In this document: piece by piece, positions 1,195 through 33,536 of the stretch
Layout: the number at the start of each line of letters is the position of its first letter
How positions within the stretch are numbered: the stretch's first letter is position 1
Source of the DNA: Candidatus Woesearchaeota archaeon
Lineage (GTDB): Archaea; Nanobdellota; Nanobdellia; Woesearchaeales; UBA11716
Direction: 5' to 3'
Length of the DNA: 33,536 nt
NCBI GenBank assembly: GCA_013329175.1
Contig: DUKR01000080.1
Span: forward strand, 1 to 33,536
Made by a program: the position numbers and the translations under genes
Notes under the pieces: model-generated
Told to the model about the DNA's origin: nothing
Databases searched by the model: none
The model's input: only the letters and a program-made list of their open reading frames with translations

Positions 1195-1203
1195 GATGGC
1201 CGC

Positions 1204-2340: not shown

Positions 2341-2349
2341 CTTTCCTTA

Positions 2350-3492: not shown

Positions 3493-3524
3493 TGCACATC
3501 ACTGCTGATTTATTATCACTTCTG

Positions 3525-4022
3525 CTACTTAGCTTTTGAGAACTTTGACCTGAATTCCTGCCTATCCACAATTGCAAGCATGATGGTCGCTTCGGCAGCC
3601 CTGATGCCGCTATGGGAGGCTGATGCGTTGAGCATTGCTCCCTTCTCGTCCATCCCAACAAGCTCTATTTCGAAGGTGAGCTTTGCGCCAGGGAAAGTAG
3701 GAGCCTTGAACCTGGCATCTTTGATCTTGTGTGCAAGGACGTCTTTTGTCTCGTGGTTGTCGAGATTGTACCTGACAAGAAGGGTAGCTGCCTGGCCCAT
3801 GCCTTCCACAATCAATGCCCCTGGCATGATGGGAAATCCCCTGAAGTGGCCTTTGAAGTATGACTCGTTGGGGCTTACCGTTTTTTCTGCCACCAGCTTT
3901 TTCTTGTCAAGCATGGTGACTCTGTCAATGAAGAGGAAAGGCTCATCGTAAGGGATTATCTTCCTAATCGCTTCCTTGTCAAGGCTTCCGTCACTTTTTT
4001 TGAGGTTGTCAATGGATTGCAT
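3525..4022 (-). CDS. FabZ/FabA-like hotdog-fold beta-hydroxyacyl dehydratase
   Basis: 165-aa ORF with the FabZ signature YFKGHFRGFPIMPGALIVEGMGQ (catalytic His and Glu in their usual context). A GAGG sits 7 nt upstream of the ATG on the minus strand. It is the first gene of the minus-strand operon. Confidence 0.75.
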   Translation of the reverse strand: MQSIDNLKKSDGSLDKEAIRKIIPYDEPFLFIDRVTMLDKKKLVAEKTVSPNESYFKGHFRGFPIMPGALIVEGMGQAATLLVRYNLDNHETKDVLAHKIKDARFKAPTFPGAKLTFEIELVGMDEKGAMLNASASHSGIRAAEATIMLAIVDRQEFRSKFSKAK

Positions 4023-4212: not shown

Positions 4213-4620
4213 ATGGTGGAGGTAGTCCATATGCCTAATGAAAAAGTAATCAAGATAAAGCCTGCATTCGAGGATGGAAGGGGAAAAATCTCCAACATCA
4301 TTGAGGATAGCTCTATCTCTCACGTTGCGATAATTACTTCAAAGAAAGGAAGCATCAGGGCAAATCACTACCATCCTGAGCAGATCCAGTATGAGTTTCT
4401 CATCAGTGGAAGGTATGAGAGCAGCTCAAAGGACCTAAAGAAAGAGGGCGCAAAAATAGAGAAAATTGTTGTTGAGCCAGGGGATTTAGTTATTACCCCC
4501 CCTATGATAGCACATGCCATGAGGTTTACTGAGGACTCTGTGATGCTGAACATAACGACAGGCAGCAGGGACCCAGAAAAATTCAAAGAGCACACCATCA
4601 AATACGAACTCATAAAGTGA
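4213..4620 (+). CDS. Small cupin-fold protein (sugar ketoisomerase/epimerase-like, WxcM/FdtA-like)
   Basis: 135-aa ORF with cupin motifs (GSIRANHYHPEQIQYEFLISG ... PGDLVITPPMIAHAM). An alternative start at ATG 4231 is preceded by GGTGGAGG 7 nt upstream. The stop codon overlaps the next gene's start (GTGA). Confidence 0.6.
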   Translation: MVEVVHMPNEKVIKIKPAFEDGRGKISNIIEDSSISHVAIITSKKGSIRANHYHPEQIQYEFLISGRYESSSKDLKKEGAKIEKIVVEPGDLVITPPMIAHAMRFTEDSVMLNITTGSRDPEKFKEHTIKYELIK

Positions 4621-5708: not shown

Positions 5709-6048
5709 TTCTTTTTCTGTAAACAAGGAATATCCCAATCCCATAGAGAGCAACAGACAGCACCGCAATCGAGAGATAGATATTGTGAAACAGCCTGTCA
5801 ATAGTCCACAGCAATTGCGAATACACGACAAGACCTATGAACAGCGAAAAAAAGAGCGTTTCATCCCTTTCAATGGGCAAATGCGAGAAAAGCAGAAAAA
5901 AAGGGAGCAGGAAAAAAAGAAAAATGGCAATAAACGCCTTTGCCCCTGTCAAACCAAAGAAGAAAGAGGGAACAAGCAGGAAAAAAAAGATTCCAGCAAT
6001 AATGCTGATTCGGTTCATCTTCAGCTGCGAGATAAGATTGTCAGCCAT
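5695..6048 (-). CDS. Small Phe-rich integral membrane protein with about 4 TM segments
   Basis: Four hydrophobic segments of about 20 residues each (IIAGIFFFLLVPSFFFGLTG, FIAIFLFFLLPFFLLFSHL, LFFSLFIGLVVYSQLLWTI, IYLSIAVLSVALYGIGIFLVY). The ATG at 6048 overlaps the stop of the upstream GT-C gene by 8 nt (ATGGCTGA). Alternative ATGs are at 6093 and 6018. Confidence 0.55.
   Translation of the reverse strand: MADNLISQLKMNRISIIAGIFFFLLVPSFFFGLTGAKAFIAIFLFFLLPFFLLFSHLPIERDETLFFSLFIGLVVYSQLLWTIDRLFHNIYLSIAVLSVALYGIGIFLVYRKRTTGS
5709..5720 (+). terminator. Oligo-T tract (TTCTTTTTCTGT) directly after the UXS-like stop codon
   Basis: A T-rich run starts 1 nt after the TAG at 5706-5708. This resembles an archaeal-type oligo-T terminator. 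It lies inside the 3' end of the convergent small ORF. Confidence 0.3.
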
Positions 6049-7660
6049 AGCGATACACCCTGATAAGTTGAGTCTGGTAAACAATGCTTGCATTCTGCGC
6101 CGCCTGGCTTTCCAACTGCTGCAATTGCTGTATCTGATCAGCCCTTCCCATTGCGGCTAAATCCGAATAGTCAAAAGCGACATGGGTAAAGGTTGAGTTG
6201 ATAGGCTCCCACCCTTTAACCTCAGCAACCGTCTCATACCTGCCGATATGCTCGTACGACTGGGTTGCATAGTGCCTGCTCAATATCTGAATCCACCTCC
6301 ACTTGGGATAGGATATGGTGCCAAGGATATTCACTCCCTCAGCGGCTGGAACGTTTGATTCTATCCATGAAGCAAGCTCCATCTGCGCAGGAGTGATTCT
6401 GCTGATGCCGTCATAGGACTGCTCAAGTGTAGCATATGCCTGCATGCCCTGGGTTGAGATCACGACTGCAAGGAAAGCTATGGCAAGGGCATATGAGGCA
6501 ACCTGTTGGCCTCGCTTTGCAAGAGGGATGAATCTGGGAAGCGATGCAATGGCAACGCCCATGATGGCGTAAAAGAAGTACGGCTCTATCATCATGAACC
6601 GTGCAATCCTGTAATTGTCTGGAGTGGATAATCCAAAAAAAGGAAAGTGATACACAAGATACAGGGCAACCATTCCGCTCAACAGAAAATATTTCTTTGT
6701 TCCCTTGCTGAACAAAAGGAGGGCAATCCCCACCATAAGCAGTCCAATAGTCCAGTATCCAGGGTAACTCGTTGCATACTCGCTAAATGCCGGATTCAGG
6801 CCAAAGTTGTTTGCTGGCCTGTCAATCCAGGTGAACAGCGTAGCGACTGCCATAACCGATGGATTCTCTCCTGAGTCACCACCCAGGCCTGAAAAGTAGA
6901 TGGGATACATCATCCATGTGAGGAAAAAAAAGACGCCAAGCATAGCAAGATACTGCTTCCACAGGCTTGGCAATGCCGGCAGCTTCCTGTATGCAATGAA
7001 GAAGAATGCGATTACGATAAGGGAGTAGATGACAAGAAAGGCGGTCGCTGAGAAATGGGCAAGTGAAGAAGATGCAAGCAGGAGCATATACAGCCAGAGA
7101 TAGGCAAGGTGCTTTTTCTTCTCATCTCCATAGAATGCTGCCAGAGCCATGTACAGGGAATATGCAGTCAGGGGGATGAACACAAACGCAAAGGTGTTGT
7201 GCCTCTGCCCCCACAGGTAGGACATGATTTCCCTGAATGAGAACATAAGAGGGATAGCAGTAAGAATCGCTGGAAGAAACCCAAACAGCTTTCGCATGAC
7301 AACATACATAGAAATGCAGCCAAGAATGGACGTGAATGCTATGAACAGGAATACAGGAACTATCCGCTCACCACCAAAAATCTGCATCAGAGAATAATCA
7401 ATGTTGTACGCCGGAGGATACACAATCCCCCTCGGCCCAAGAAGTATGTTGTAGCCAGCATACCACCCTCCAAGCGATGGAGGGGTATCCCCTATGAGGT
7501 TCATGGTCCTGCCCAGGTAGGTGATGTGATCCCCATACGAGAATATGTAGGCACCGTCATGCTCTGAAAACGGCAGGTGATTGTCCTGCAGGGGGAGTGT
7601 CCAGAAAAAGAAGGAAACGGCAAACAAAATTCCAATGACAATCCAATCGCGATTATCCAT
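6041..7660 (-). CDS. Large polytopic membrane protein, GT-C-like glycosyltransferase (module A)
   Basis: 539-aa ORF with many hydrophobic segments over about 400 aa, followed by a C-terminal soluble domain of about 140 aa. An acidic first loop (SEHDGAY) follows TM1. I did not see the WWDYG oligosaccharyltransferase motif. Confidence 0.6.
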   Translation of the reverse strand: MDNRDWIVIGILFAVSFFFWTLPLQDNHLPFSEHDGAYIFSYGDHITYLGRTMNLIGDTPPSLGGWYAGYNILLGPRGIVYPPAYNIDYSLMQIFGGERIVPVFLFIAFTSILGCISMYVVMRKLFGFLPAILTAIPLMFSFREIMSYLWGQRHNTFAFVFIPLTAYSLYMALAAFYGDEKKKHLAYLWLYMLLLASSSLAHFSATAFLVIYSLIVIAFFFIAYRKLPALPSLWKQYLAMLGVFFFLTWMMYPIYFSGLGGDSGENPSVMAVATLFTWIDRPANNFGLNPAFSEYATSYPGYWTIGLLMVGIALLLFSKGTKKYFLLSGMVALYLVYHFPFFGLSTPDNYRIARFMMIEPYFFYAIMGVAIASLPRFIPLAKRGQQVASYALAIAFLAVVISTQGMQAYATLEQSYDGISRITPAQMELASWIESNVPAAEGVNILGTISYPKWRWIQILSRHYATQSYEHIGRYETVAEVKGWEPINSTFTHVAFDYSDLAAMGRADQIQQLQQLESQAAQNASIVYQTQLIRVYRYG

Positions 7661-8294: not shown

Positions 8295-8301
8295 TTAAAT
8301 A
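8294..8301. promoter_or_regulatory. Consensus-like archaeal TATA box TTTAAATA shared by divergent methyltransferase genes
   Basis: The element centre is 26.5 nt from the ATG at 8324 (plus strand) and 27.5 nt from the ATG at 8270 (minus strand). Confidence 0.5.
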
Positions 8302-8323
8302 CATTGCCAATGGAAAGTGTGCT

Positions 8324-9986: not shown

Positions 9987-11099
9987 CTACCCCTTAAACT
10001 GCCTGATGACTTTGATGACATGGTTGACTTCCTCTTCACTGCACCCTCCAAGGGGAAGCTCTATTGATTTGTTTCCAACCTCGTCTGCGCCAGGCAGCGA
10101 GACATCCCTGAACAGCGTGCGGTGATACGGCTGCCGGTGGGCAGGAAGCCAGCATATCCTGATGTCAATGTCATGCTTTATAAGAAATTTTGCAAGGCTG
10201 TCTCTATTTGTATCCTGTACCATAATGCCAAAGAACAGATAGGGGTGCATGGAGACATATGAGGGAACTTCCTGAAAGCCATAGTCGCCTCCAAGTGCTT
10301 CTTTGTAAAGGGCAACGAGCCTGTTGCGGTGGGCCACCTGAGAGTCTACTTTTTTCAGCTGCGCAAGACCAATTGCTGACTGGATGTCAGTGATGCGAAA
10401 GTTCAGCCCATAGCGGGCATAGTCGTAGTGCAGGTTCTCTTTTGAGTTATAAGGGGCACTCATTCCGTGGTTTCGGATTGATTTGCACCTTTTTGCAATC
10501 TCTGCTGAGGGGGTAAGCACGCATCCTCCTTCAATGGTTTGCAGTGATTTTGCAATGTGAAAGCTAAATGTGCTGGTATGGTCAAAGTAGCCCATAGGCT
10601 TTCCCTTATACGCTCCGCCTATGGCAGCAGCAGCATCCTCTATGAGCGCCAAGTCATGCTCCTGCGCAAAACGCTCAAAGGAGTCAACGTCAACAGGCAT
10701 CCCTGCAACATCAACAGGCATGATTGCTTTTGTAGCATCACTCAGATGCTCTTGCATAAGTTCAGGTGTGGTGTTCCACATACCTGGATCAGAATCAACA
10801 AGTATGGGGGTAGCTCCGACAGAGAACACAGAGTTGATGGAGGCGATGAAGGTCAGGGACGGGACAAGAACCTCGTCTCCTGCCCCTATGCCATGCGCAA
10901 GAAGCGCAGTAGTTAATGCAGCAGTTCCTGTTGAGACACAGACAACGTGCTTTGCGCCGGTATACTCTGAAAGCCCTTTTTCAAACTCTTCGGTGACTTT
11001 TCCCTGCGTCACCCAGCCGCTTTTGATGACTTCGATTGCAGCCTGTTTTTCCGCATTTCCAAAATCAGGTCGTGCCCATGGAACTCTCATGAGGGTCAT
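9987..11099 (-). CDS. DegT/DnrJ/EryC1/StrS-family PLP sugar aminotransferase (GDP-perosamine synthase-like or ArnB-like)
   Basis: 370-aa ORF with FEKGLSEYTGAKHVVCVSTGTAAL and the PLP-lysine context FSFHIAKSLQTIEGG. An ATGA overlap links it to the upstream GT2 gene. Confidence 0.8.
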   Translation of the reverse strand: MTLMRVPWARPDFGNAEKQAAIEVIKSGWVTQGKVTEEFEKGLSEYTGAKHVVCVSTGTAALTTALLAHGIGAGDEVLVPSLTFIASINSVFSVGATPILVDSDPGMWNTTPELMQEHLSDATKAIMPVDVAGMPVDVDSFERFAQEHDLALIEDAAAAIGGAYKGKPMGYFDHTSTFSFHIAKSLQTIEGGCVLTPSAEIAKRCKSIRNHGMSAPYNSKENLHYDYARYGLNFRITDIQSAIGLAQLKKVDSQVAHRNRLVALYKEALGGDYGFQEVPSYVSMHPYLFFGIMVQDTNRDSLAKFLIKHDIDIRICWLPAHRQPYHRTLFRDVSLPGADEVGNKSIELPLGGCSEEEVNHVIKVIRQFKG

Positions 11100-12883: not shown

Positions 12884-12905
12884 GTTTTTGCAGGTTAGCG
12901 TGAAC

Positions 12906-12915
12906 TTTATAAATA
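12906..12915. promoter_or_regulatory. TATA-like element TTTATAAATA shared by divergent gmd and GT4 genes
   Basis: The centre is about 27.5 nt from the gmd ATG (12883) and about 29.5 nt from the GT4 ATG (12940). The intergenic region is 56 bp. Confidence 0.5.
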
Positions 12916-12939
12916 TTCTCTGGCTCTTATAGCCAAATC

Positions 12940-15013: not shown

Positions 15014-16657
15014 TTAGTATATTCCAGGCAACCAGTTACATGGTGCAAGTATTTCTTTAGCGTTTATCGGCTCAGAAAGATTGTAAAGTATCCTGTTCCC
15101 CTGAATGGTAGCAACGCCGTAAGAGATTGAATTGTTAGCCATAAATTTCTCCAGCCCGTCAGCTATATGCATAGTATAAGGGTCAAAGATGTATGCTGTA
15201 TGCTCATCGTTAGTCATAAGGGATTCTATGGGCCCATACCAGTTAGGGCAGGGGCAAAGGTCACATGAAGCGATGACCTTTTTCTGGGTATAAAACAGTA
15301 TTTTCCATTTAAGGGGATGGGAGGAGTACACTGAATGGATGGAATTATTTTCCAAAAAGTCGATAACGCCAGCAATGGACTCTTTGTCCTTTTCTGCGTA
15401 GGATTGTGCCAGTGGCGGGACTGTTCCAATCAACAGAAGTATAAGGATGCCCATCCCGAGAAAGACTCCCTGCCTGCTATGCTGCACAATAAGTGCGATG
15501 GCATAGGAGATAAGGAGAATAAAAAAAGGGAAGACTGGCGAAAAATGCTTCACGTCTGTCCATCCAGAAAGCATAAATATCATGGCCCAGAAGTATACAA
15601 ACAGGACAAGGATGAGCTCTTTTCTTGCTGTAGGAAACGCAATGGCACTTTCTGAAAAAGGGTTAAGCGAGGAAATAAACGGGAGGAAGTACCTTAGGTT
15701 CAGGATAGAAATGAGCCCAAAAAGCAGGAGAGCCAGGAAATAATACGTCCACGAGTTAAATAGGAGATGGAGGGTGACGGTAAAAAAAGAGGTTATGCTA
15801 AACTGGTTTCGAAGGTTCTTCTCAAAGATGTGGCAGGGGTCAATAATCCGGTCCCCATAGGCCATCTGGCCAGGCAAAAGGTTGTGTTCGCATGCAAATC
15901 TATGGATGGCGTTTCCAGCCATAAAATGCTTAATGTTTGAAAAATTGTGGGTTGCATTGTAATATATCAAGGGGCTGATGGAGACAAGCAGCAGCAGGAC
16001 AAACACCCTAAAGGTTTTCCTTGTATAAAACCGTTTGTCAGAAAGATACCAAATAAACACAAAAAACAGCAAATAAGCAAGAGCATACTCCAGATTCCAC
16101 CATGCTATGCCTACGGTCAGCCCCATAAGGCCTGCTTTAAGCATTGTTCCTTTACTTTTGACAAAAATGTCGTAAGTAAAGATGCCCATCAGCAGAAAGA
16201 AAAAAAGGGTTTCAGGATAGCCTGAAAGGCCCATTACTGAAAGCCTGGTCATGAAGGGGGAGGAAAATGTAAAGAGGGTAAGGGCAAATACTGCAGTGAG
16301 CTTCCCGAAGTGTCTGCTTGCAAAATAATACAGCAAAAAAAAAGTGGCACATGATACCATTACACTTACTAATTTAAAAGATATATCTGATATGCCGAAG
16401 AGTAAAAAGGTAAGAACCGCAAGGTAAGATTCGATGGCTGCTCCGCCAATGTAAGGCTCTCCGTAGATGAAATAGTGAAGTTTTCCCTCTTTAAACGTAT
16501 CCATGGCCATCACCGCAATGGATGCAGGGTCCCCTGCCAGATGCTGCTGTGATGTAAAGAGGAGAGCTAATCTTGTTACTAAAAAAATACCAAAGAGGAA
16601 AGCCACAGCAGCATGAAATCCCGTCGCCCGATGGCCTGGTCGCTTAGCGTGAGGCAT
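15014..16657 (-). CDS. GT-C-fold membrane glycosyltransferase, ArnT/PMT (GT39/GT83)-like (module B)
   Basis: 547-aa polytopic ORF. The first loop has acidic residues (HLAGDPASIAVMAMDTFKEG), followed by a PMT_2-like segment (KLVSVMVSCATFFLLYYFASRHFGKLTAVFALTLFTFSSPFM). The C-terminal soluble domain is about 130 aa. Confidence 0.7.
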   Translation of the reverse strand: MPHAKRPGHRATGFHAAVAFLFGIFLVTRLALLFTSQQHLAGDPASIAVMAMDTFKEGKLHYFIYGEPYIGGAAIESYLAVLTFLLFGISDISFKLVSVMVSCATFFLLYYFASRHFGKLTAVFALTLFTFSSPFMTRLSVMGLSGYPETLFFFLLMGIFTYDIFVKSKGTMLKAGLMGLTVGIAWWNLEYALAYLLFFVFIWYLSDKRFYTRKTFRVFVLLLLVSISPLIYYNATHNFSNIKHFMAGNAIHRFACEHNLLPGQMAYGDRIIDPCHIFEKNLRNQFSITSFFTVTLHLLFNSWTYYFLALLLFGLISILNLRYFLPFISSLNPFSESAIAFPTARKELILVLFVYFWAMIFMLSGWTDVKHFSPVFPFFILLISYAIALIVQHSRQGVFLGMGILILLLIGTVPPLAQSYAEKDKESIAGVIDFLENNSIHSVYSSHPLKWKILFYTQKKVIASCDLCPCPNWYGPIESLMTNDEHTAYIFDPYTMHIADGLEKFMANNSISYGVATIQGNRILYNLSEPINAKEILAPCNWLPGIY

Positions 16658-23316: not shown

Positions 23317-23340
23317 GCCTGCAGTATGTTGTCTTTGCAG

Positions 23341-23348
23341 TTATAAAT
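23341..23348. promoter_or_regulatory. TATA-like element TTATAAAT between the divergent AsnB-like and GT2 genes
   Basis: The centre is about 28.5 nt from the AsnB-like ATG (23316) and about 35.5 nt from the GT2 ATG (23380). Confidence 0.4.
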
Positions 23349-23379
23349 TTCACGATAGATTCGACCGAGGGCGAATCCC

Positions 23380-24147
23380 ATGACTAAAAAAAAATTTAAA
23401 CAGGGGCTTTTTTTCATACCGCACATGCACAAGGGCAAGAGCGTATCAGTTGTTTTCCCTGCATTTAACGAGCAGGAAGGGATTGGTGCAGCAGTCAGGG
23501 AGTTCTTTGCAACAGGCATTGTGGATGAGATTGTAGTCGTTGATAACAATTCAAAAGATAACACCTCCAACAAGGCAACAGAGGCAGGCGCAAGGGTTGT
23601 TCTTGAAAAGAGGCAGGGCTACGGATGGGCCAGCAGGAGAGCCCTGCACGAAGCAAAAGGAGACATCATCATTATCGCTGAGCCAGACGGCACATTTGCA
23701 GGGAAAGATATCTTCAAGCTTCTTGCCTACGCCCAAGACTTTGATATTATCTTTGGGACAAGGACATCAAAGGAAAGCATATGGGATGGAGCCAACATGA
23801 ACCTGTTCCTCAGGTATGGCAACGTCTTTGTCGCAAAGCTTATGGAATACCTCTTCAACGGCCCCTGCCTCACTGACGTAGGATGCACTATGAAATTATT
23901 CAGGAGGGAAGCAATCGAAAGGATAAAGCCAAAATTTACTGTTGGGGGATCACACTTCTCCCCAGAGCTGATGATATTGGCGATAACAAGCAAAGCTAAG
24001 TGCATAGAGATTCCTCTGAATTATCGCAAAAGGGTTGGAGCCTCAAAGATAACAGGGGATCTCTCAAAAGCTATCAGGCTTGGGTTCGTCATGATTGGCC
24101 TTATCCTTGCATACAGGCTTGGATTCAAAAAGGCCGCTGGAAAATGA
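23380..24147 (+). CDS. GT2 polyprenyl-phosphate sugar synthase-like glycosyltransferase with a C-terminal TM helix (module C)
   Basis: Motifs VSVVFPAFNEQEGI, IVVVDNNSKDNT and IIIIAEPDGTF. The C-terminal helix is IRLGFVMIGLILAYRLGF. The stop overlaps the start of the next gene (ATGA at 24144-24147). Confidence 0.7.
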   Translation: MTKKKFKQGLFFIPHMHKGKSVSVVFPAFNEQEGIGAAVREFFATGIVDEIVVVDNNSKDNTSNKATEAGARVVLEKRQGYGWASRRALHEAKGDIIIIAEPDGTFAGKDIFKLLAYAQDFDIIFGTRTSKESIWDGANMNLFLRYGNVFVAKLMEYLFNGPCLTDVGCTMKLFRREAIERIKPKFTVGGSHFSPELMILAITSKAKCIEIPLNYRKRVGASKITGDLSKAIRLGFVMIGLILAYRLGFKKAAGK

Positions 24148-25817
24148 AAAGGCAAGCCTACCTTGCAATAAGCCTAATTCTTCTTGGGATTCTATTGCGT
24201 GTATCATCTCTGGATAATGTTCCCTATCTTGATGAAGCAGCCTGGGCATATACTGCAACTGACACCAGCATGCAGACTTATGCCTCAACTATCCCACACC
24301 CCCCCCTTGCAATTCTGTTGTTCAAGGCTCCCATGCTCATTGCTCCCTACAGCGATGTCATGCTGAGGATGGTGCCGCTTTTCCTTGGGTTAGCTACTCT
24401 TGCTGTAGTGTTCCTGATAGCAAATATACTGTATGGAAAAAGCGCTGCATACTGGTCACTGGTGATAATGAGCCTCTCGTTTTGGCACGTTCTTGCCTCA
24501 GTGCAGGTTGACGTTGACGGCGCTATTCTTGCTTTCCTGTTTTCCTGCGCGGTTTATTGCTATCTTCTCTTCGAAAAAACAACAAAAAAGCAATTCCTTT
24601 ATGCCACTGGGGTATTTCTCGGTCTCTGCATCTTTGCTAAGCTGCCAGGGATTCTTGGCTCTGTGACTATCGGGCTGTATGTCATAGCAAAGAAAAGAAA
24701 GCTGCGAAGCATTATCATTGAGGGAGGGGTTCTGCTGTCAATTGTTGCTGCAATGTTTGCCCCCTATGTTCTCTACCTTAAGGCAACTAATCCAGAGGCA
24801 TTCCAGTTCGTGTTTGCCCATAATGCCGGCTATTACACAGGGGGAGTATCTCTCCTTCCCCTTGCTTATCTGCTGTTGTGGGGTACGCCTCTTCTGGCAG
24901 GGTTATCCATGCTCGCTACACTAAGGCTTGCCAAGAATGACATGCTTCCTCTGCTCTGGATTTTCGTGTGTGTCGCATTTTACTTAGTGATGGGTGTTCC
25001 CGGACTTTCTCCGTTTGACAGGTACCTGATGGTTATCATCCCTCCCCTTGCAATGCTCTCCGGAAAGTTTCTTTCATCACTACAGCCAGCAAAGAGGCAC
25101 CTGCCGCATATCATTACTTCATTTTTGATTGGATTGGCTATTCTTACCGCTTTCCAGTTTCAGTCAACTATCGTCAGGCATTCTCTGGAAGATTACGCCA
25201 AGCGGCTGCTTTCCCCTGACTGGATGTTCTACCTCCCGATTACAGGTTCAAGCGGCCCGACAATGCTTATTGGAATAGGGGGGATTATCGTTGTCAGCGC
25301 GCTTGCATACCTATTCATGCTTTTTTCCCTCTTCTCAAAAAAGAAGGGGTTGAAAACAGGCCTTATTGCAGTAAGCCTTGGAATGGCTCTTGCAATCAAC
25401 TTGTTCCTTGCAGGAGAGCTTGCATTCCCGCTTTTATCGCCGGATATATCGGCAATGACCAATGACGCAATAAGCACAGTGAAAAGCAGCAGCCTGAGCC
25501 TTCCACTCTATACCAATGCCCTTGGCATCTCATGGCATGCAAGGCTTAATGACCCCTATTTTGCAAGGGGGGGCATCATAACAGTATTGCCTGACGCTCG
25601 CAGATACGAGACAGAAAGCAGCGATGAGAGCATCAGGTCAATAGCTGAAGGAATGCTGGCAGAAGGCGGGACATTAATTCACATAGATTACCCGCCGTCA
25701 CATACAGCTATTGCCTTGTGGGATGCCCTTGCTGACTGCAATGTGATGAAGGAGTACACCTATAAGGAAAGGCGCATGGGGTATGTTATCACTTGCCCTG
25801 AGCAGGACAACATTTAA
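24144..25817 (+). CDS. GT-C-fold membrane glycosyltransferase, ArnT/PMT-like (module C)
   Basis: The start is placed at ATG 24144 (MKRQAYLAISLILLGILL), which overlaps the GT2 stop. The first loop contains PYLDEAAWAY (DE motif), followed by a PMT_2-like segment (LRMVPLFLGLATLAVVFLIANILYGKSAAYW). The protein is polytopic and has a C-terminal soluble domain. Confidence 0.7.
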   Translation: MKRQAYLAISLILLGILLRVSSLDNVPYLDEAAWAYTATDTSMQTYASTIPHPPLAILLFKAPMLIAPYSDVMLRMVPLFLGLATLAVVFLIANILYGKSAAYWSLVIMSLSFWHVLASVQVDVDGAILAFLFSCAVYCYLLFEKTTKKQFLYATGVFLGLCIFAKLPGILGSVTIGLYVIAKKRKLRSIIIEGGVLLSIVAAMFAPYVLYLKATNPEAFQFVFAHNAGYYTGGVSLLPLAYLLLWGTPLLAGLSMLATLRLAKNDMLPLLWIFVCVAFYLVMGVPGLSPFDRYLMVIIPPLAMLSGKFLSSLQPAKRHLPHIITSFLIGLAILTAFQFQSTIVRHSLEDYAKRLLSPDWMFYLPITGSSGPTMLIGIGGIIVVSALAYLFMLFSLFSKKKGLKTGLIAVSLGMALAINLFLAGELAFPLLSPDISAMTNDAISTVKSSSLSLPLYTNALGISWHARLNDPYFARGGIITVLPDARRYETESSDESIRSIAEGMLAEGGTLIHIDYPPSHTAIALWDALADCNVMKEYTYKERRMGYVITCPEQDNI

Positions 25818-26975: not shown

Positions 26976-27512
26976 ATGAAAAAAAAAGAAAGCGCCATGC
27001 CAAGAAAGCTTAATATCGGCTGCGGGTTTGACCTGCGAGCTGGCTTTGTGAATGCGGACATCAGAGAGCCATGCGATGTAAAATTGGACATGTCAAAAAA
27101 GCCATACCCATTTAAGGATAACAGCTTTGATTACATCCTTATGAACAATGTCCTTGAGCACATTGAAACGCCCCTCATGGTGATTGAAGAGATTCACAGG
27201 ATTTGCTCGCCTGCAGGGACAATTGAGATTATTGTTCCATTTTATAACAGCCCCAATGCGTACAATGACATAACCCATGTCCGCTTCTTTCACAGGGACA
27301 CGCTGAAAGATTTTGATATCAACACGAAAGGAAAGCGGTACGAGGCATCACCAGTGAAGTTCCGGATAAAGACTGTGCTGCATCCTTCACTCTTCGGAAG
27401 GCTCATTCCTAAGCCGCTGCTCAATGTATGCGCAGTTACCATCGGAAATCTTGTTGCTGCAGTAACCTACAAGCTTACCCCTGTCAAGGATGAAAATTCT
27501 CCTAATGAATGA
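26976..27512 (+). CDS. Small class I SAM-dependent methyltransferase (Methyltransf_11-like)
   Basis: 178-aa ORF with LNIGCGFDLRAGFVNADI and FDYILMNNVLEHI. An alternative start is ATG 26997. The 3' end overlaps the next gene by 23 nt. Confidence 0.7.
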   Translation: MKKKESAMPRKLNIGCGFDLRAGFVNADIREPCDVKLDMSKKPYPFKDNSFDYILMNNVLEHIETPLMVIEEIHRICSPAGTIEIIVPFYNSPNAYNDITHVRFFHRDTLKDFDINTKGKRYEASPVKFRIKTVLHPSLFGRLIPKPLLNVCAVTIGNLVAAVTYKLTPVKDENSPNE

Positions 27513-28644
27513 TTGTGAAGAGAAAGCAGGAGGTGCTGAAGTATACCTCTATCACCTTATTGAGCTTCTCAAAAGCAGAGGTCATGGTATAAGCACATAC
27601 TTCTCCCAGAAAAAATCGGGGATAAGGCCGATAGAAAGCATCTTTAGCTTCAGGAATCTTTTCAGCATCCTGAAAAAGATAAAACAGGAGAATCCCGACA
27701 TCATTCACATCCAGAAATACAACCTTTCATTGTCTCTCTCGCCGCTTGTTGCCGCAAAAATAGCAGGGAAAAAAACAGTAGTGACGCTGCAGGATTTTGG
27801 GCTAATCAGCGCTAACAGCTGGTGTGTTGATGATAAGGGTATAGCCTGCGAGAAGCCATCATCAATCAGGTGGGTATTCAAAAAAAGCAAAAGTGAAAAA
27901 AAGCTGCTCAATAAGCTCTATGACTATGGCAAGAACGTAATTCACCTGCGGATGCTTGGAATGTTTGCTGATGTATGCGTCGTACCAGGGACGCCCCTGC
28001 AGGAGTACCTTAAGGAGATATTACCCTATAAGGAGGTAACCACCATCCCCCATTTTATTCCTGAGACATATAGCTTTAAGAAAAAGGCAAAAAAAGGATT
28101 CAAGCTTGCGTTCATCGGGAGGCTTGAAAAGGAAAAAGGAGTGATGGAATTAGTAAAGGCGATGACCTTGTGCGATAAGAAGTGGAAGCTCTCAATAATT
28201 GGTGATGGGTCATTATATTCCTATGCTAGAGGTTACATTCTGAAAAATAAGTTGCAGGCTAGAGTATCGCTGAGGGGGAGGCTTAGGAAGGAGAAAATAG
28301 AAAAAGAATATCACGATGCCGACGCAGTGATTATGCCGTGTGCATGGCTTGAACTGCAGGGAATGGTTGGTGCAGAAGCATTCAGCACAGGAACACCTGT
28401 GGTTGCGCCGTACATGGGGGGGATTGCTGACTGGCTGAAGGATGGTTACAATGGCGCGGAAATCAAAAAGATAATCCCTGAAGAAATAAAAAAGGCGATT
28501 GAAAGGTTTGATGGCATGGATATCACCAGGCTGTCTGCAAATGCAAGAGCATCCTATCTGAAAATATTCACACCTGATGCACACTACAGAAAGCTGATGG
28601 GAGCATATAGCCTAGCTAGAGGTGCTAAAGGAGGAGCGGTATAG
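27490..28644 (+). CDS. GT4-family glycosyltransferase
   Basis: 384-aa ORF with MKILLMND...AGGAEVYLYHLIELL, FIGRLEKEKGV, and the E...E motif region ELQGMVGAEAFSTGTPVVA. Confidence 0.8.
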   Translation: MKILLMNDCEEKAGGAEVYLYHLIELLKSRGHGISTYFSQKKSGIRPIESIFSFRNLFSILKKIKQENPDIIHIQKYNLSLSLSPLVAAKIAGKKTVVTLQDFGLISANSWCVDDKGIACEKPSSIRWVFKKSKSEKKLLNKLYDYGKNVIHLRMLGMFADVCVVPGTPLQEYLKEILPYKEVTTIPHFIPETYSFKKKAKKGFKLAFIGRLEKEKGVMELVKAMTLCDKKWKLSIIGDGSLYSYARGYILKNKLQARVSLRGRLRKEKIEKEYHDADAVIMPCAWLELQGMVGAEAFSTGTPVVAPYMGGIADWLKDGYNGAEIKKIIPEEIKKAIERFDGMDITRLSANARASYLKIFTPDAHYRKLMGAYSLARGAKGGAV

Positions 28645-28645
28645 G

Positions 28646-29776
28646 GTGGCAACAATAGGACTCATACGGGGGAATTTCCTGAATCTGTGGGAATGGCAGC
28701 TTTTTGAGATGGCTAAAAAACATAATATCATACCCATCTGCACAATAGACAATAAGTTCTCGACTGCAGGGATCCCTCACATCAGGAGGACGGACAATGT
28801 CAGAAGGTTCAATAAGGTTCCCCTGCTCTCAACGCTTCTTCAGGGGGTGCTTCCTGTCAATGACTATATGTTCGGGTTAAAGGAAAAAGTGAAGGACTGC
28901 AGCATCCTCCATACCGCAGACCCTCATTATCCCTTTTCATATCAGGCAGCAGCGCTTGCAAAGCCCTGCGTGTTCACGGTATGGGAAAACCTATCGGGAA
29001 ATAACGAGCGCTCGCTCTATCGGCTCTTTAAGCGCCAGTCCTATAAAAGGGGTGCTCTCTTCCTTCCTGTGACCAAAAAATCAAGAGACGCTCTCATTGC
29101 TGAGGGGGTGCCAGAAAACAAGATACGCGTATTCTCTCCAGGAATAGACACCATGAGGTTTGCTCCTTCGCCAAAAGATAAAGCCCTGTGCCAAAAGTAC
29201 GAGATTAGCAGCAAAAGCAAATGCATCCTGTTCACCGCAAGGGTTTGCAGGGAGAAAGGGATAGAGTACCTTCTTGCTGCCTTGCGTGGTCTTATGCAAA
29301 AAGACAAAGACATTGTCCTTCTCATAGCAGGGTCAGGGCCGCTGAGGTCAAGAGTCGAAGATGCAAAGAGAGAGGGGCTCAACATCGTGTATCTTGATTT
29401 CTGCCCCTATGAGGATATGCCAAAGATATACGGTCTGGCTGACATTGTCTGCATACCAAGCATAAGGACAAGGCAATGGGAGGAGCAGTGGGGATACGCA
29501 TTCGTTGAGGCAATGGCATGTGGCAAGCCCGTCATCTCAACCAAAACAGGGTCAATCGAAGAGGTTGTTGAAGATGGGAAAACAGGGATTCTTGTTGAGC
29601 AAAAAAGCGCACAGGAGCTGCAAAAGGCAATAACGTTGCTCCTTACTGACAAAAAGGCATATCGGGACATGGCTTACCATGCAAGGAAAAGGGCGATGGC
29701 CTGCTTTGATGCAGAGAAGCAGATGAAAAAGCTTGAGTCAATATATGACTCTGTGCTGAGGGGAAATAATGCCTGA
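28646..29776 (+). CDS. GT4-family glycosyltransferase
   Basis: The start is placed at GTG 28646, because GGAGGAG (28630-28636) lies 9 nt upstream and the upstream gene stops at 28644; the ORF track begins at GTG 28622. Motifs are ILFTARVCREKGI and EEQWGYAFVEAMACGKPVIST. Confidence 0.8.
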   Translation: MATIGLIRGNFLNLWEWQLFEMAKKHNIIPICTIDNKFSTAGIPHIRRTDNVRRFNKVPLLSTLLQGVLPVNDYMFGLKEKVKDCSILHTADPHYPFSYQAAALAKPCVFTVWENLSGNNERSLYRLFKRQSYKRGALFLPVTKKSRDALIAEGVPENKIRVFSPGIDTMRFAPSPKDKALCQKYEISSKSKCILFTARVCREKGIEYLLAALRGLMQKDKDIVLLIAGSGPLRSRVEDAKREGLNIVYLDFCPYEDMPKIYGLADIVCIPSIRTRQWEEQWGYAFVEAMACGKPVISTKTGSIEEVVEDGKTGILVEQKSAQELQKAITLLLTDKKAYRDMAYHARKRAMACFDAEKQMKKLESIYDSVLRGNNA

Positions 29777-29827: not shown

Positions 29828-29833
29828 AAAAAA
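29828..29833 (-). terminator. T6 tract on the minus strand, 11 nt after the Fe-ADH stop codon
   Basis: The minus strand reads TAA-GATTGGGGGATTTTTTAC. An oligo-T run is the usual archaeal termination signal, and it lies in a 67-nt convergent gap. Confidence 0.4.
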
Positions 29834-29843
29834 TCCCCCAATC

Positions 29844-30980
29844 TTAAAATATCTCCTGAAGGATGGACTTTACATTTTCTGTCACAATCTTTCTTGGATT
29901 ATTTCTCACCCTTTCTTGGTCAAATCCCATTTCAGCGATGACAGGAACATTAGCTTCAGTTATCCCAAGCGCAGAAAGGCTAGTTGCAAGCCCTATCTCC
30001 CGCATAAGTGAGGAAAGGGTGTTTGCTGCTTCCTGCGGCGTCTTTGCGTGCAACATTCCTACAAGCTCCTGCACCCTCTGCTTTACAAATTCAACTCCTC
30101 TAGCATCCTGAATAGTTGAAGCATCAACATTTGCATTGAGGATAAAAAAATTTCCGATGCTCAAGCCGACAGCATGGCCGTGAGGAATGTTAAAGTAAGA
30201 AGTTAGCGGGTAAGACAGTGCATGCGCTGCAGTCGTTTTAGCGATATTAATCGCTCTTCCTGCAAAGTTGCTTCCCATCAGCATCTTTTCCCTGTTCTTC
30301 TTGTCTGGGTGCAGGACGCTTTCTGATAGGCTGGAAAAGACAAGTTCAATGGCTTTCCTGCTGTATCTGCGGGATTCTTCCGTAGATTTGACTGACCAGT
30401 AGGATTCTATCCCCTGACACAATGCGTCCATTCCGCAACAGGCAGAAATATACGGAGGGCAGGATAGGGCGAATGTTGGGTCAAGGATGACATAGTCAGG
30501 AAGCATGGAAGGGTGTGCAAGAGAGTATTTTGTCTTGGTTATGTAGACCACTGAGAAGTGGGTTGATTCTGAGCCTGTTCCTGCGGTTGTGGGGATGACC
30601 GCAAGAGGTATCCTTCGTTTGATTCTTATGCCGTTCTTTTCGATGATGTTTTTGGCTTCATCATCCTGCGAGTGAAGAATGGCAATGGCTTTTGCAATGT
30701 CAATGGCTGTTCCGCCGCCAACACCTATTACACAGTCACACCTCTCGTTTCTGAATATCCGCAATCCTCTCTCAATATCCTCAAGTTTAGGATTAACGTC
30801 AAAATCACAGAAACGGCAAAACTTGGAATTTTGAAACAATGGCTCAATGGCCCCCTTAGCACCGCAGGAAGCATAGGATGCTTTTCCTGTCACCAGAAAT
30901 ATTTTTTGAGGGTGATGTTCCGAGAGTACTGTTTTTAGTTCCTGTATGCTCCCATAGCCGCGATGAAATTGCTGATTCAT
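29844..30980 (-). CDS. Iron-containing (group III) alcohol dehydrogenase, phosphonoacetaldehyde reductase-like (PhpC/FomC/Pdh-like by context)
   Basis: 378-aa ORF with GVGGGTAIDIAKAIA and the metal-His region HALSYPL...HGHAVG. An ATGA overlap links it to the ppd gene. Confidence 0.75.
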   Translation of the reverse strand: MNQQFHRGYGSIQELKTVLSEHHPQKIFLVTGKASYASCGAKGAIEPLFQNSKFCRFCDFDVNPKLEDIERGLRIFRNERCDCVIGVGGGTAIDIAKAIAILHSQDDEAKNIIEKNGIRIKRRIPLAVIPTTAGTGSESTHFSVVYITKTKYSLAHPSMLPDYVILDPTFALSCPPYISACCGMDALCQGIESYWSVKSTEESRRYSRKAIELVFSSLSESVLHPDKKNREKMLMGSNFAGRAINIAKTTAAHALSYPLTSYFNIPHGHAVGLSIGNFFILNANVDASTIQDARGVEFVKQRVQELVGMLHAKTPQEAANTLSSLMREIGLATSLSALGITEANVPVIAEMGFDQERVRNNPRKIVTENVKSILQEIF

Positions 30981-32104
30981 TGTATGAACTTCATGAACGC
31001 TTGTTTATTCTGGATTGGTGTGGTTGTCGGCCTTCCAAGATCTTTGCGGGCTCCCTTGTTCACCCGTATTTCCAGAAGTACAGGCCCTTGCTCATCCCGC
31101 AAGGTTGCCATTGCCTGCTGTATCTCCTCTCTTGTCTTGGCAGCATGTGCATCCCTGTACCCGTTTGCTTTTGCAATTACTGGAAGGTCTATGCCAAACC
31201 CTGTAGTAGGCTGGCCGCCTACTGAATCGTGAGAGCCGTTGTTGAAGACGATATGCTTAAAATTTTTTGGAGCAAGCTGACCTGATATTGCAAGCGAGCC
31301 CATGTGCATGATGACTGCGCCGTCCCCATCAAAGCAGAACACCTGCCTATCTGGCTTCTGCAACGCTATGCCAAGGGCAATTGATGACGAGTGTCCCATG
31401 CTCCCTACTGTCAAAAAATCACGGGAATGATTTTGCCTGAGCTCTTCACGGTATTCAAAAAGCTCTCTGGACGTCTTGCCTGTCGTTGAGACGACGATAT
31501 CGGTATCATTGAGTGCATCAACCACAAGCTTCAGTGCATCTTCCCTACTGAGTTCATAGCTAGTCTTTGCCTTACTCTGGAGCTTGTATTCGGCAAAGGT
31601 ATTCTTTTTTACCACAAGGGCATAGGGAGCACTTCTTTTTTTCATCCCATCTACGGCCTTCTCAACGCTTACTTTTGCAGTATCACTGTCTTCAGGAAGT
31701 ATTTCATAGGGTATTCCAAGGGTTTCCAGAAGTTCAAGGGTTATTTTCCCCTGCTTGACATGCTGTGGCTCATCCTTTACCCCTGGCTCCCCCCTCCATC
31801 CGATTATCAGCAACACGGGGATACTGTAGACGTCAGGGTCAACCAGAGACATCAGCGGGTTCACTGCATTGCCCTCTCCTGAATTCTGCATGTACACAAC
31901 CCCTATCTTTCCTGTTGCAAGATAGTAGCCTGCGGCAAGGGCTATTGCGTTACCTTCATTTGCCGTGATGATGTTGTCCTTTTTGTCGGCATTGTCTGCT
32001 ATGTAGGCGCAAAAATCCTTAAGCAATGAGTCAGGGACTCCAGCAAAGAAGGTGAGGTTGTGGCTTTTCAGAACAGCATAGAAAACATCGCAGGGTATCA
32101 TCAT
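30977..32104 (-). CDS. ppd: Phosphonopyruvate decarboxylase (ThDP-dependent)
   Basis: 375-aa ORF with the ThDP motif [18 protein letters not shown]...[11 protein letters not shown]. Its size and single-chain architecture are typical of Ppd. ATGA overlaps occur at both ends. Confidence 0.8.
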
Positions 32105-33399
32105 TTCCCACCAGGAATCAGTTCAAGAATCTCCTTGATTGGCATGCACTGCGCATCAGCCTCATAGCTCCTTCCATGCTCAAGGATTGACCTTGCTGTC
32201 GTAACCATTGCCGGATACGCGCTCCTAAGCATGTGATTAGCATAGATGACAACAGAGACGCCTGCATCCGCAAGCTCCTTTTCTGTGATGATGTTGTAGG
32301 TGCTGGGGACAGCAACAAGCGGCACCTTCTGATCAAAAGAAGCATATGCCTTGCAGAATTCAAGGACTTCGTCAGGCGTTTTTTCCTTGCTGTGGATCAT
32401 GACGCCATCGGCCCCAGCGGCAATGTAGGCCTTCGCACGCTTGAGCGCATCAGCAACACCTGCCTTTAGGATGAGGCTCTCTATCCTAGCTATGATCATG
32501 AACTGCTCGGTGACTTGAGCCTGCTTACCTGCATGTATCTTCTCGGAAAATCCTTCAATAGTATCCTGCTGCTGCGCTACATCAGTCCCAAAAAGAGAGT
32601 TCTTCTTCAGTCCCACTTTATCTTCTATGATGATAGCAGAAACGCCTATGCGCTCAAGTGTCCTTACCGTAAATGGGAAATGCTCAATAAGGCCGCCTGT
32701 ATCTCCATCAACGATGATGGGCTTGGTGGTCACGTCAAGAATTTCATGGATAGTGTTCAGGCGAGAGGTGAGATCAACGTATTCTATGTCTGGCTTCCCT
32801 TTTGCCGTTGAATCTGTCAGGCTGCTTACCCACATGCCGTCAAATTCCTCGACGCTCCTTTCTTTGGTATTGGAAGTATGCTCAGCTATCAGGCCTGTCA
32901 GTCCATTGTGCACTTCAAGGACGCGGACAATCTGCTTTGCATCAAGCAGCCGTCGCAATCGCTTCATTCGTATATCCGGAGTTGTTCCCACTTCCTTCAG
33001 CGCCTTGTTTAGAATGGTAGAGGATATTCCGACAGTGTATTCCGTCTCAACGAGCTTTCCGCCCCATTCACTAAGGGCATCTATAACCCGTTGCCTGACT
33101 TCCCTTTGGACGCCTGCTTTCCAGTCATTGCCATGCACAACAAAATCAGGTTTTAATATTCTAAGATTCAGGACATAATCAAGAGTCTCTTGGGGGACTA
33201 CCTTTGATACACCCTTTATGTTCTCCATGATGATCTTTCGCTGCTCATAAGTGAGTGCAGGAAGCCTCTTGTAAGATGCAATTGCCTTGTCAGTGAGGAG
33301 CCCTACAGTGACCTCTCCTAGTTTTCGTGCCTCATTGATGATGTTCAGGTGTCCAGGGTGAATGAGGTCAGCGCTCATTCCAACATAAACTTTCTTCAT
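32101..33399 (-). CDS. pepM: Bifunctional cytidylyltransferase / phosphoenolpyruvate mutase (Fom1-like fusion)
   Basis: 432-aa ORF. Residues 1-135 carry cytidylyltransferase motifs: [13 protein letters not shown] (HxGH) and TVGISST. Residues ~150-432 are PEP mutase/isocitrate-lyase fold and carry the PEP-mutase-diagnostic [10 protein letters not shown] (EDKx5NS) at 32596-32625. Confidence 0.85.
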
Positions 33400-33422
33400 T
33401 TTAGCTGTTGATACCTCAGCGG

Positions 33423-33430
33423 TTTAAAAT
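33423..33430 (-). promoter_or_regulatory. TATA-like element (ATTTTAAA on the minus strand) upstream of the phosphonate operon
   Basis: The centre is about 27.5 nt upstream of the pepM ATG at 33399. Confidence 0.4.
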
Positions 33431-33536
33431 GTTTGCTGGTCGCATGGTAACTTTTCTAGGCTGAAGACGCTGCGTTTTTCCATCATCAGAAATCCGCATT
33501 AGAGCAAGCTCATCAACCTGACTTTCTGAACTGAGA

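Follow-up and report, generated by a model that had tools for sequence, protein, structure and literature searches.

A Fom1-type operon of a groundwater DPANN archaeon predicted to supply CMP-activated 2-hydroxyethylphosphonate for the cell envelope

Biosynthesis by way of 2-hydroxyethylphosphonate (HEP) is predicted for 8.5% of the genomic neighbourhoods of ppm, the gene for phosphoenolpyruvate (PEP) mutase (Li and Horsman, 2022; PMC8942020), and this branch is known for cell-surface conjugates, of which only the methylphosphonate adduct of Nitrosopumilus maritimus and the HEP-exopolysaccharide of Stackebrandtia have been characterised (PMC8942020). In 23.6% of all Ppm enzymes the mutase is fused to a PF01467 domain (Rice et al., 2019; PMC6697681), and in Fom1 of the fosfomycin pathway this cytidylyltransferase (CT) domain converts HEP and cytidine triphosphate (CTP) to the cytidine monophosphate (CMP) conjugate CMP-HEP (PMC6697681). 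Here we describe an operon encoding such a fusion on a contig assigned to a Candidatus Woesearchaeota archaeon (GCA_013329175.1, DUKR01000080.1, positions 1 to 33,536; this whole stretch of 33,536 nt is called the window below), in which the fusion gene, pepM, is followed by genes for a phosphonopyruvate decarboxylase (Ppd) and an iron-dependent alcohol dehydrogenase (Fe-ADH) (Table 1). The operon is a commonplace archaeal version of the widespread CT-PepM/Ppd/PhpC cassette, the enzymes, fusion and HEP branch of which are already catalogued, and it probably makes CMP-HEP for attachment to the cell envelope.

The product of the first gene is identified by its sequence as a Fom1-type CT-PEP mutase (PF01467 plus PF13714; KEGG 'fom1'). 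In a Pfam search the fusion protein matches PF01467 over aa 9-130 (E 9e-13) and PF13714 over aa 148-406 (E 1e-56), and it contains the motifs HPGH (aa 14-17) and GISST (aa 124-128) as well as an EDKx5NS-type stretch (aa 259-268). PepM reaches 407.4 bits on the PEP mutase equivalog model TIGR02320 (cut-off 319.55), and its scores on the models for phosphonopyruvate hydrolase and methylisocitrate lyase are far under their cut-offs. Identity of the mutase domain to a solved stand-alone PepM from Streptomyces is only 36%. The CT domain, which aligns with the crystallised domain of Fom1 (5x3d_A) at 94 of 134 identical positions (70%; E 3.9e-60), is predicted from this identity and from the genomic context to have CTP:2-HEP cytidylyltransferase activity.

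Domain and model matches likewise assign the second gene as a phosphonopyruvate decarboxylase of the Ppd/AepY/Fom2 type: the protein has the Pfam domains TPP_enzyme_N and TPP_enzyme_C, scores 510.7 bits on the TIGR03297 equivalog (cut-off 312.5), stays below the cut-offs of the sulfopyruvate decarboxylase models and finds its closest PDB structure in the split Ppd 9iz3. The third gene product, in which PF00465 (E 4.5e-43) and PF25137 mark the Fe-ADH and ADH_Fe_C domains, is a predicted phosphonoacetaldehyde reductase of the PhpC/FomC-type group III ADHs. Its closest PDB structure is 6jko, the sulfoacetaldehyde reductase that PMC13576164 (2026) places nearest in structure to the phosphonoacetaldehyde reductases of the PhpC type. 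The NAD and metal motifs are intact, with GGGxxxD, D-x3-Q/H and two His ligands conserved, and Gln (motif CGMDALCQGIES) stands where group III ADHs have their first His ligand to the metal. Gln occupies this position in 14 of the 21 pepM-linked ADHs aligned, the other 7 keeping His, and it may be a signature of a PhpC-type subgroup.

As a transcription unit the operon is self-contained. Both gene junctions are ATGA overlaps, that of pepM and ppd (4 nt) reading CATCATTTCC on the plus strand at 32099-32108 and that of ppd and the ADH gene reading ATTCATTGTA at 30975-30984; two adjacent ATGs give a Ppd of 375 or 374 aa, and gene callers disagree between them. The TTTTAAA box preceding pepM has a spacing consistent with archaeal leaderless transcripts, and its reading as a TATA box is more than chance, since an A/T box stands 24-39 nt 5' of the ATG in about 11 other genes that lead operons in the window and in none of the operon-internal genes. 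A scan for bacterial sigma-70 promoters and hairpin terminators gave nothing over the shuffled background. Transcription would thus be expected to yield a leaderless mRNA that starts from the operon's own TATA box and ends at the oligo-T tract. An initial annotation of this DNA, made from its letters alone, had proposed the three gene identities, the HPGH, GISST and EDKx5NS motifs, the ATGA-joined layout, the upstream TATA-like box and the T6 tract after the last stop; hidden Markov model (HMM) searches with PF13714, PF01467, the thiamine diphosphate (ThDP) enzyme domains and PF00465 bear out the identities, and the motifs and layout are present as it had placed them.

Table 1. Positions of the operon, its signals and the adjoining features in the window.
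Feature	Position	Strand	Remarks
CT-PepM fusion gene	33399..32101	minus	432 aa
N-terminal cytidylyltransferase	aa 1-137, nt 32989-33399	minus	PF01467
PEP mutase part	aa 145-432	minus	PF13714
Ppd gene	32104..30977	minus	375 aa, ThDP-dependent
Fe-ADH gene	30980..29844	minus	378 aa
TATA-like box TTTTAAA	33423..33429	minus	-30..-24 relative to pepM ATG
T6 tract	29828..29833	minus	10 nt past ADH stop; candidate archaeal-type oligo-T terminator
Terminal 22 nt of multi-copy insertion sequence (DDE transposase)	33515..33536		115 nt upstream of pepM ATG
Small methyltransferase-like protein	26976-27512	plus	convergent with operon
Two GT4 glycosyltransferases	27490-28644, 28622-29776	plus	convergent with operon

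Elsewhere in the window, each of the divergent gene pairs at 12884-12939 and 23317-23379, and also that at 8295-8323, has a single palindromic A/T box in a very short spacer. In the first of these, a 56-nt spacer, TTTATAAATATT stands 23-34 nt from both ATGs, and the 63-nt spacer of the second contains AAATTTATAA; the sharing of such boxes suggests bidirectional archaeal promoters from which leaderless mRNAs start in either direction. Scans for Rfam families, tRNAs and repeats, run on the window or region, turned up nothing relevant.

The pathway proposed for the operon would begin with the PepM domain, rearranging PEP to phosphonopyruvate, which Ppd would convert to phosphonoacetaldehyde, pulling the unfavourable mutase equilibrium forward; the Fe-ADH-family reductase would then form HEP from phosphonoacetaldehyde. 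Family membership and conserved synteny are the grounds for these three steps, and for the fourth, in which the fused Fom1-type CT domain would turn HEP and CTP into CMP-HEP, they are the 70% identity to a characterised enzyme and the context. In a fifth step a CMP-releasing phosphotransferase would pass the HEP-phosphonyl group to an envelope acceptor, either a glycan sugar of the adjoining ~25-kb cluster or a membrane lipid. The equivalog scores, the CT identity and the conserved ADH support the chemistry from 2-HEP to CMP-2-HEP that the initial annotation had predicted. Decoration of a glycan or glycoconjugate appears somewhat more likely than a phosphonolipid, and both rank above a diffusible product.

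The genomic setting agrees with an envelope destination. The window is a glycosylation cluster with four GT4 and three GT2 glycosyltransferases, three GT-C-like polytopic proteins, four methyltransferases and several short-chain dehydrogenases/reductases (SDRs), and the ~25 kb around the operon also encode a GDP-mannose dehydratase, a DegT aminotransferase, a UDP-sugar dehydrogenase, an AsnB-type amidotransferase and a deacetylase; the GT4, SDR and four methyltransferase neighbours named in the initial annotation are thus all there. Domain searches of the window's open reading frames (ORFs) also agree with it on what is missing. No 2-aminoethylphosphonate (AEP) transaminase (PF00266) occurs in the window, its sole aminotransferase being the DegT-type sugar aminotransferase at 9987..11099; the soluble ORFs without assignment include none of ~440 aa that could be an MpnS or HepD, and the only cupin is a 135-aa sugar-isomerase-like protein (4213-4620); and among the window ORFs there is no Radical_SAM, B12-binding, cupin-epoxidase or DUF402-type protein. 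With the counterparts of Fom3, Fom4 and FomD absent among these ORFs, the cluster is not a fosfomycin cluster, and the lack of antibiotic-type tailoring genes, together with the glycosylation context, upholds the earlier preference for an envelope over an antibiotic product. The initial annotation had also likened the four methyltransferases to those expected for O-methylated, HEP-bearing exopolysaccharides of bacteria; of such polymers, PMC8942020 documents an HEP conjugate of the Stackebrandtia exopolysaccharide.

Compared with Fom1 of Streptomyces wedmorensis (5x3d), the window protein has the same order of PF01467 and PEP mutase domains, a CT domain 70% identical over 134 aa and, as in the fosfomycin pathway, a FomC/PhpC-type ADH leading to HEP. 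That pathway, however, also has Fom3 (a B12 radical-SAM methylase), Fom4 (an epoxidase) and FomD (a CMP hydrolase). Because none of these is in the window, cytidylylation here is probably not transient and is likely to serve transfer of the group onto an acceptor in the envelope; further differences are the DPANN archaeal host and the glycosylation-cluster context. Closer in setting are the HEP-type ppm neighbourhoods, including the HEP-exopolysaccharide cluster of Stackebrandtia nassauensis (Li and Horsman, 2022; PMC8942020), which share with the window the Ppm-Ppd-PhpC core, the polysaccharide context and a predicted surface conjugate, and from which the window differs in its archaeal host and promoter architecture, in having no visible transferase and in that its product is predicted. 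The Pnt pathway, in which PntC and a LicD-like protein handle AEP (Rice et al., 2019; PMC6697681), follows the logic proposed for the window, making a phosphonate, activating it with CMP and transferring it to a glycan or lipid of the surface. The activating domain in the window is PF01467 rather than PF12804, the predicted substrate is HEP rather than AEP, since an ADH replaces the AEP transaminase (AEPT), and there is no LicD.

Two further systems are related in part. The Group 1 'CDP-OH' phosphonolipid clusters of Burkholderia and Nostoc (PMC8942020, PMC5987646) use a CDP-alcohol phosphotransferase, as do the archaeal relatives of the window described below, and an HpnL-like protein, as in the relative L050; they make AEP or 1-hydroxy-AEP by way of AEPT and an oxygenase, and the window itself contains neither the transferase nor an HpnL-like gene. 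The methylphosphonate pathway of Nitrosopumilus maritimus (Ppm-Ppd-Pdh-MpnS) is an archaeal Ppm-Ppd-ADH route to HEP like that of the window, with an exopolysaccharide-bound phosphonate, and the differences are the absence of MpnS from the window and its different archaeal lineage (DPANN).

The assignment of the operon to a widespread cassette is illustrated by the distribution of its parts. The fusion has more than 8000 homologues (E<1e-20), some of them in records already named 'phosphoenolpyruvate phosphomutase / 2-hydroxyethylphosphonate cytidylyltransferase', and the best 120 clusters, 73-78% identical, come from Ignavibacteria, Bacteroidota, Woesearchaeota, Nanoarchaeota and others. A survey of one genome per species gave 26 fusion-bearing loci; in 18 of them, from many phyla, Ppd and Fe-ADH come after the fusion, and two more are truncated behind Ppd. 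The taxa with the triad include Cyclobacteriaceae, Paceibacterota, Micromonosporaceae, Akkermansiaceae, Prevotella and Pelagibacter. The triad is also present in the closest archaeal relatives (loci L048, L049 and L050), and in a further one, L052, the ADH gene is nearby. The identities of the genes, the families to which they belong and the conservation of the cassette are established. Two of these loci show unusual arrangements: Ppd and ADH appear to be fused (750 aa) in a Gastranaerophilales locus among the 18 (L017:11266-13518), and the Nanoarchaeota contig L052 has two PEP mutases 8 kb apart, one fused to PF12804 (48-1706) and the other to PF01467 (10001-11299).

Within the source environment, the identical PepM protein recurs on 17 contigs from groundwater metagenomes and in one NCBI metagenome-assembled genome. 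The host is identified by sequence as a DPANN archaeon, in agreement with the promoter architecture: SecD and SecF on the left extension of the contig match archaeal models best, and the nearest relatives of SecD, 53-62% identical, are from Candidatus Woesearchaeota and Nanoarchaeota.

Several observations weigh against a complete pathway to an envelope conjugate at this locus. Pfam and NCBIfam searches found no LicD, TagF-like, CDP-alcohol, sulfatase-fold or other phosphotransferase in the window and the 9 kb to its left, and tblastn, a scan for the D..DG..AR motif, custom HMMs for pepM-linked CDP-OH and LicD proteins, and phmmer with a TagF-like query gave nothing better than E 0.3 in six frames of the same region; for the window itself this repeats what the initial annotation had noted. 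The ADH passes no NCBIfam equivalog, its best phosphonate-related model, TIGR03405 (Phn_Fe-ADH/PsrA), giving 168.7 bits against a cut-off of 423.7; enzymes of the PhpC type are very divergent (39% mean identity; PMC13576164). Compared with the closest relative (L050, 10001-13566), PepM is 78%, Ppd ~70% and ADH only ~41% identical, and these uneven values within one cassette, taken with the equal similarity of PepM to bacterial and archaeal homologues, suggest cross-domain transfer and possible replacement of the ADH. Furthermore, some of the pathway could have been cut off or lost through the insertion sequence (IS) next to pepM. Finally, the host is uncultured, and the enzyme activities, the formation of CMP-HEP, the transferase and the acceptor are all deduced from genes.

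In other genomes, LicD, TagF-like or CDP-alcohol-type enzymes alternate beside the same triad, which narrows the question of how HEP is attached. Bacterial triads are flanked by LicD in L027 and L032, by a homologue of TagF-like glycerophosphotransferases in L021 and by a CDP-alcohol phosphotransferase in L020, LicD being the commonest neighbour family (8 of 111 neighbour proteins). The archaeal relatives L049-L052 encode mutually homologous, small CDP-OH_P_transf-like membrane proteins with the motif LDxxDGxxAR at ~0.1-5 kb from CT-PepM: a single copy directly upstream of pepM and on the same strand in L049, a single copy paired with an HpnL-like LPG_synthase_TM protein in L050, three copies in L051 and two in L052. 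The CDP-alcohol protein of L050, used as a query, found six weak homologues only, none of them from the source samples. The transferase serving the window operon would most likely be a small membrane protein of the CDP-alcohol phosphotransferase family, encoded beyond the IS or elsewhere in the genome. The more specific proposal, that a DPANN clade of poorly conserved CDP-alcohol-phosphotransferase-like proteins (220-270 aa, LDxxDGxxAR) acts as the CMP-HEP:acceptor phosphonyl transferase and has its gene beyond the IS here, is put forward tentatively. The initial annotation had called the module self-contained. As a pathway, this is unsupported, because the position usually just upstream of pepM, where relatives have their CMP-releasing phosphotransferase beside the triad, is held here by the IS at the window edge.

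Besides CT-PepM, Ppd and its three CDP-alcohol phosphotransferases, the L051 locus (1-20912, GCA_053533695.1) encodes three B12-binding radical-SAM proteins, an AEP-type transaminase, a sulfate adenylyltransferase, an adenosine phosphosulfate (APS) kinase and a truncated Fe-ADH, and it may represent a pathway to methylated or sulfated phosphonate lipids.

Since the archaeal relatives carry CDP-alcohol phosphotransferases, which are normally lipid-acceptor enzymes, a lipid is a serious alternative to the glycan acceptor; the surface decoration proposed in the initial annotation, of a glycan or a lipid, is supported as regards the envelope. In a phosphonolipid pathway, a CDP-alcohol phosphotransferase would move the HEP-phosphonyl group to archaeol, diacylglycerol or a lipid-linked carrier, and the glycan genes would be only loosely related to the operon. 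The occurrence of CDP-OH_P_transf-family proteins close to CT-PepM in four archaeal relatives points in this direction, as does their pairing with an HpnL-like protein in the closest of them, a combination also drawn for the predicted phosphonolipid clusters of Nostoc and Burkholderia (PMC5987646; PMC8942020, 'Burkholderiales_CDP-OH'). Nevertheless, no CDP-alcohol transferase gene is found in the window or the left extension, and the operon lies inside a 25-kb glycan cluster, as it does in L048 and L050. Moreover, enzymes of this family can use non-lipid or lipid-linked glycan acceptors, the archaeal DIPP synthase being an example, and we consider a phosphonolipid to be possible but doubtful.

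Upstream of pepM the assembly breaks because a multi-copy IS abuts the operon. All 17 contigs with the identical PepM end 140-450 nt upstream of its gene. When metagenomes were scanned with this upstream region, five contigs were returned, and on these a ~190-nt IS end adjoins at least four different flanks; the IS looks active in this population. One of the contigs, L044, joins the 5' end of pepM to the transposase gene and stops inside the IS. The transposase of the IS matches DDE_Tnp_1 and reads as 396 + 136 aa with a stop between. With the IS boundary at 33515, the TATA box is intact. In the remaining native sequence (33400-33514), a 32-codon frame on the same strand extends from where the IS stops to a TGA that lies 20 nt short of the pepM ATG. 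The frame could represent the 3' part of a gene that the IS interrupted; it has no detectable homologue, and one of this length is expected by chance in about half of such stretches.

A further copy of the IS lies in L043:165-1900, and IS ends are also found in L044-L047. L043, in which the IS is followed by a HAD hydrolase and a PntC-like fragment, was rejected as the right flank of the operon since its other flank mismatches the region upstream of pepM, marking it as a different copy. The alternative context offered by L005:1-365, on a JGI contig that carries the same operon, consists of unrelated GC-rich sequence from 86 nt before pepM and is probably a chimeric join. Common ancestry of the IS with one in L050 was likewise rejected, the transposases being only 23% similar and differently positioned.

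These findings allow the cassette to be read as a recently transferred and partly orphaned remnant, from which the IS has removed or displaced the transferase and which leaves the strain with free HEP, CMP-HEP or nothing useful. Apart from the abutting and evidently active IS and the 32-codon frame open from its boundary toward pepM, this account draws on the similarity of PepM, equally high (73-78%) to bacterial (Ignavibacteria, Bacteroidota) and archaeal homologues when SecD reaches at most 62% to any relative, which suggests lateral transfer. None of the three ORFs is interrupted or shortened, however, the native 115 nt upstream, TATA box included, are preserved, the identical protein from many samples indicates a stable population, and the 32-codon frame, with its chance expectation and want of detectable homology, adds little, so that degeneration of the cassette is judged improbable.

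The action of the fused domain on HEP is addressed by the neighbours of CT-PepM in other genomes. Two CT-PepM loci that follow other branches have an extra nucleotidyltransferase of the PF12804 (PntC) type, alongside an aldehyde dehydrogenase branch in L019 and an AEPT branch in L034, whereas among the 111 neighbour proteins of HEP-type loci extra nucleotidyltransferases are uncommon (NTP_transf_3, n=3; NTP_transferase, n=3) and class-V aminotransferases are absent from the top of the neighbour-family list. This pattern is consistent with a fused CT domain serving HEP, since the non-HEP loci add a PF12804 transferase and the HEP-type loci seldom do. It could still be argued that the domain acts on another phosphonate or alcohol, or has a structural or regulatory role, and that HEP is used without nucleotidyl activation, in view of the retention of the same fusion where the branch enzyme is an AEPT or an aldehyde dehydrogenase and of measured CT-domain specificity that in PMC6697681 is limited to the Streptomyces member; set against the 70% identity to a domain shown to form CMP-HEP, the intact HxGH and GISST catalytic motifs and the separate PF12804 transferases just described, this proposal is very improbable.

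Least probable of all is that HEP is only an intermediate which tailoring genes beyond the IS or unlinked to the operon turn into methylphosphonate, a fosfomycin-like or another small molecule, for although HEP is common to the methylphosphonate, fosfomycin, phosphinothricin and dehydrophos pathways, the right-hand genes are hidden behind the IS and the relative L051 joins CT-PepM with three B12-radical-SAM enzymes, no MpnS, HepD, Fom3, Fom4, FomD or radical-SAM gene occurs in the 33.5 kb of the window and the 9 kb beside it, and the closest relatives L048, L049 and L050 have glycan or lipid-type neighbours only.

As regards the glycan genes that surround the operon, the nearest of them are not recognisable as fixed partners of the cassette. 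The GT4 neighbours show 27-31% partial similarity to those of the archaeal relatives and are not clear orthologues, and the small methyltransferase-like proteins that recur beside the triad in the window, in L048/L050 and in L049 were rejected as an orthologous fourth component, the window and L049 proteins being just 23% identical over 109 aa (E 2e-4) and the L048 protein matching neither. Three polytopic membrane proteins with small C-terminal soluble domains are encoded at 6041-7660, 15014-16657 and 24144-25817, two of them PMT_2 (GT-C)-like and one without a family match, and two small EamA proteins are encoded as a pair immediately to the left of the window (L039:11543-12264). Together with the three GT2 proteins, this set resembles an ArnC/ArnE-F/ArnT-like system for transfer of lipid-linked sugars outside the membrane, and the cluster content is compatible with a lipid-linked glycan that would be assembled partly outside the membrane. 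At the left end of the window, beside the glycan genes, a minus-strand block (73-4022) encodes two thiolase-like proteins, a DUF362 Fe-S protein and a FabA/ApeI/ApeP-like dehydratase; the block could form a module for acyl-chain or polyene-type lipids, which one would not expect in a DPANN genome.

By itself the operon adds little: it is a neat instance of a cassette already catalogued, from a lineage that has been little studied. What interest remains lies in the identity of the HEP transferase, a role that a DPANN-specific CDP-alcohol-type clade might fill. If that reading of the clade is true, host-dependent archaea would possess a lipid with an HEP head group or a lipid-linked glycan capped with HEP, in either case a hydrolysis-resistant envelope component so far undescribed in archaea. 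If CMP-HEP is made here for the envelope, the locus would be a concrete case for studying HEP attachment, for which no transferase is identified in the phosphonate literature cited. A groundwater DPANN archaeon would then be spending phosphorus on an envelope C-P compound, adding archaeal subsurface producers to the phosphonate cycle.

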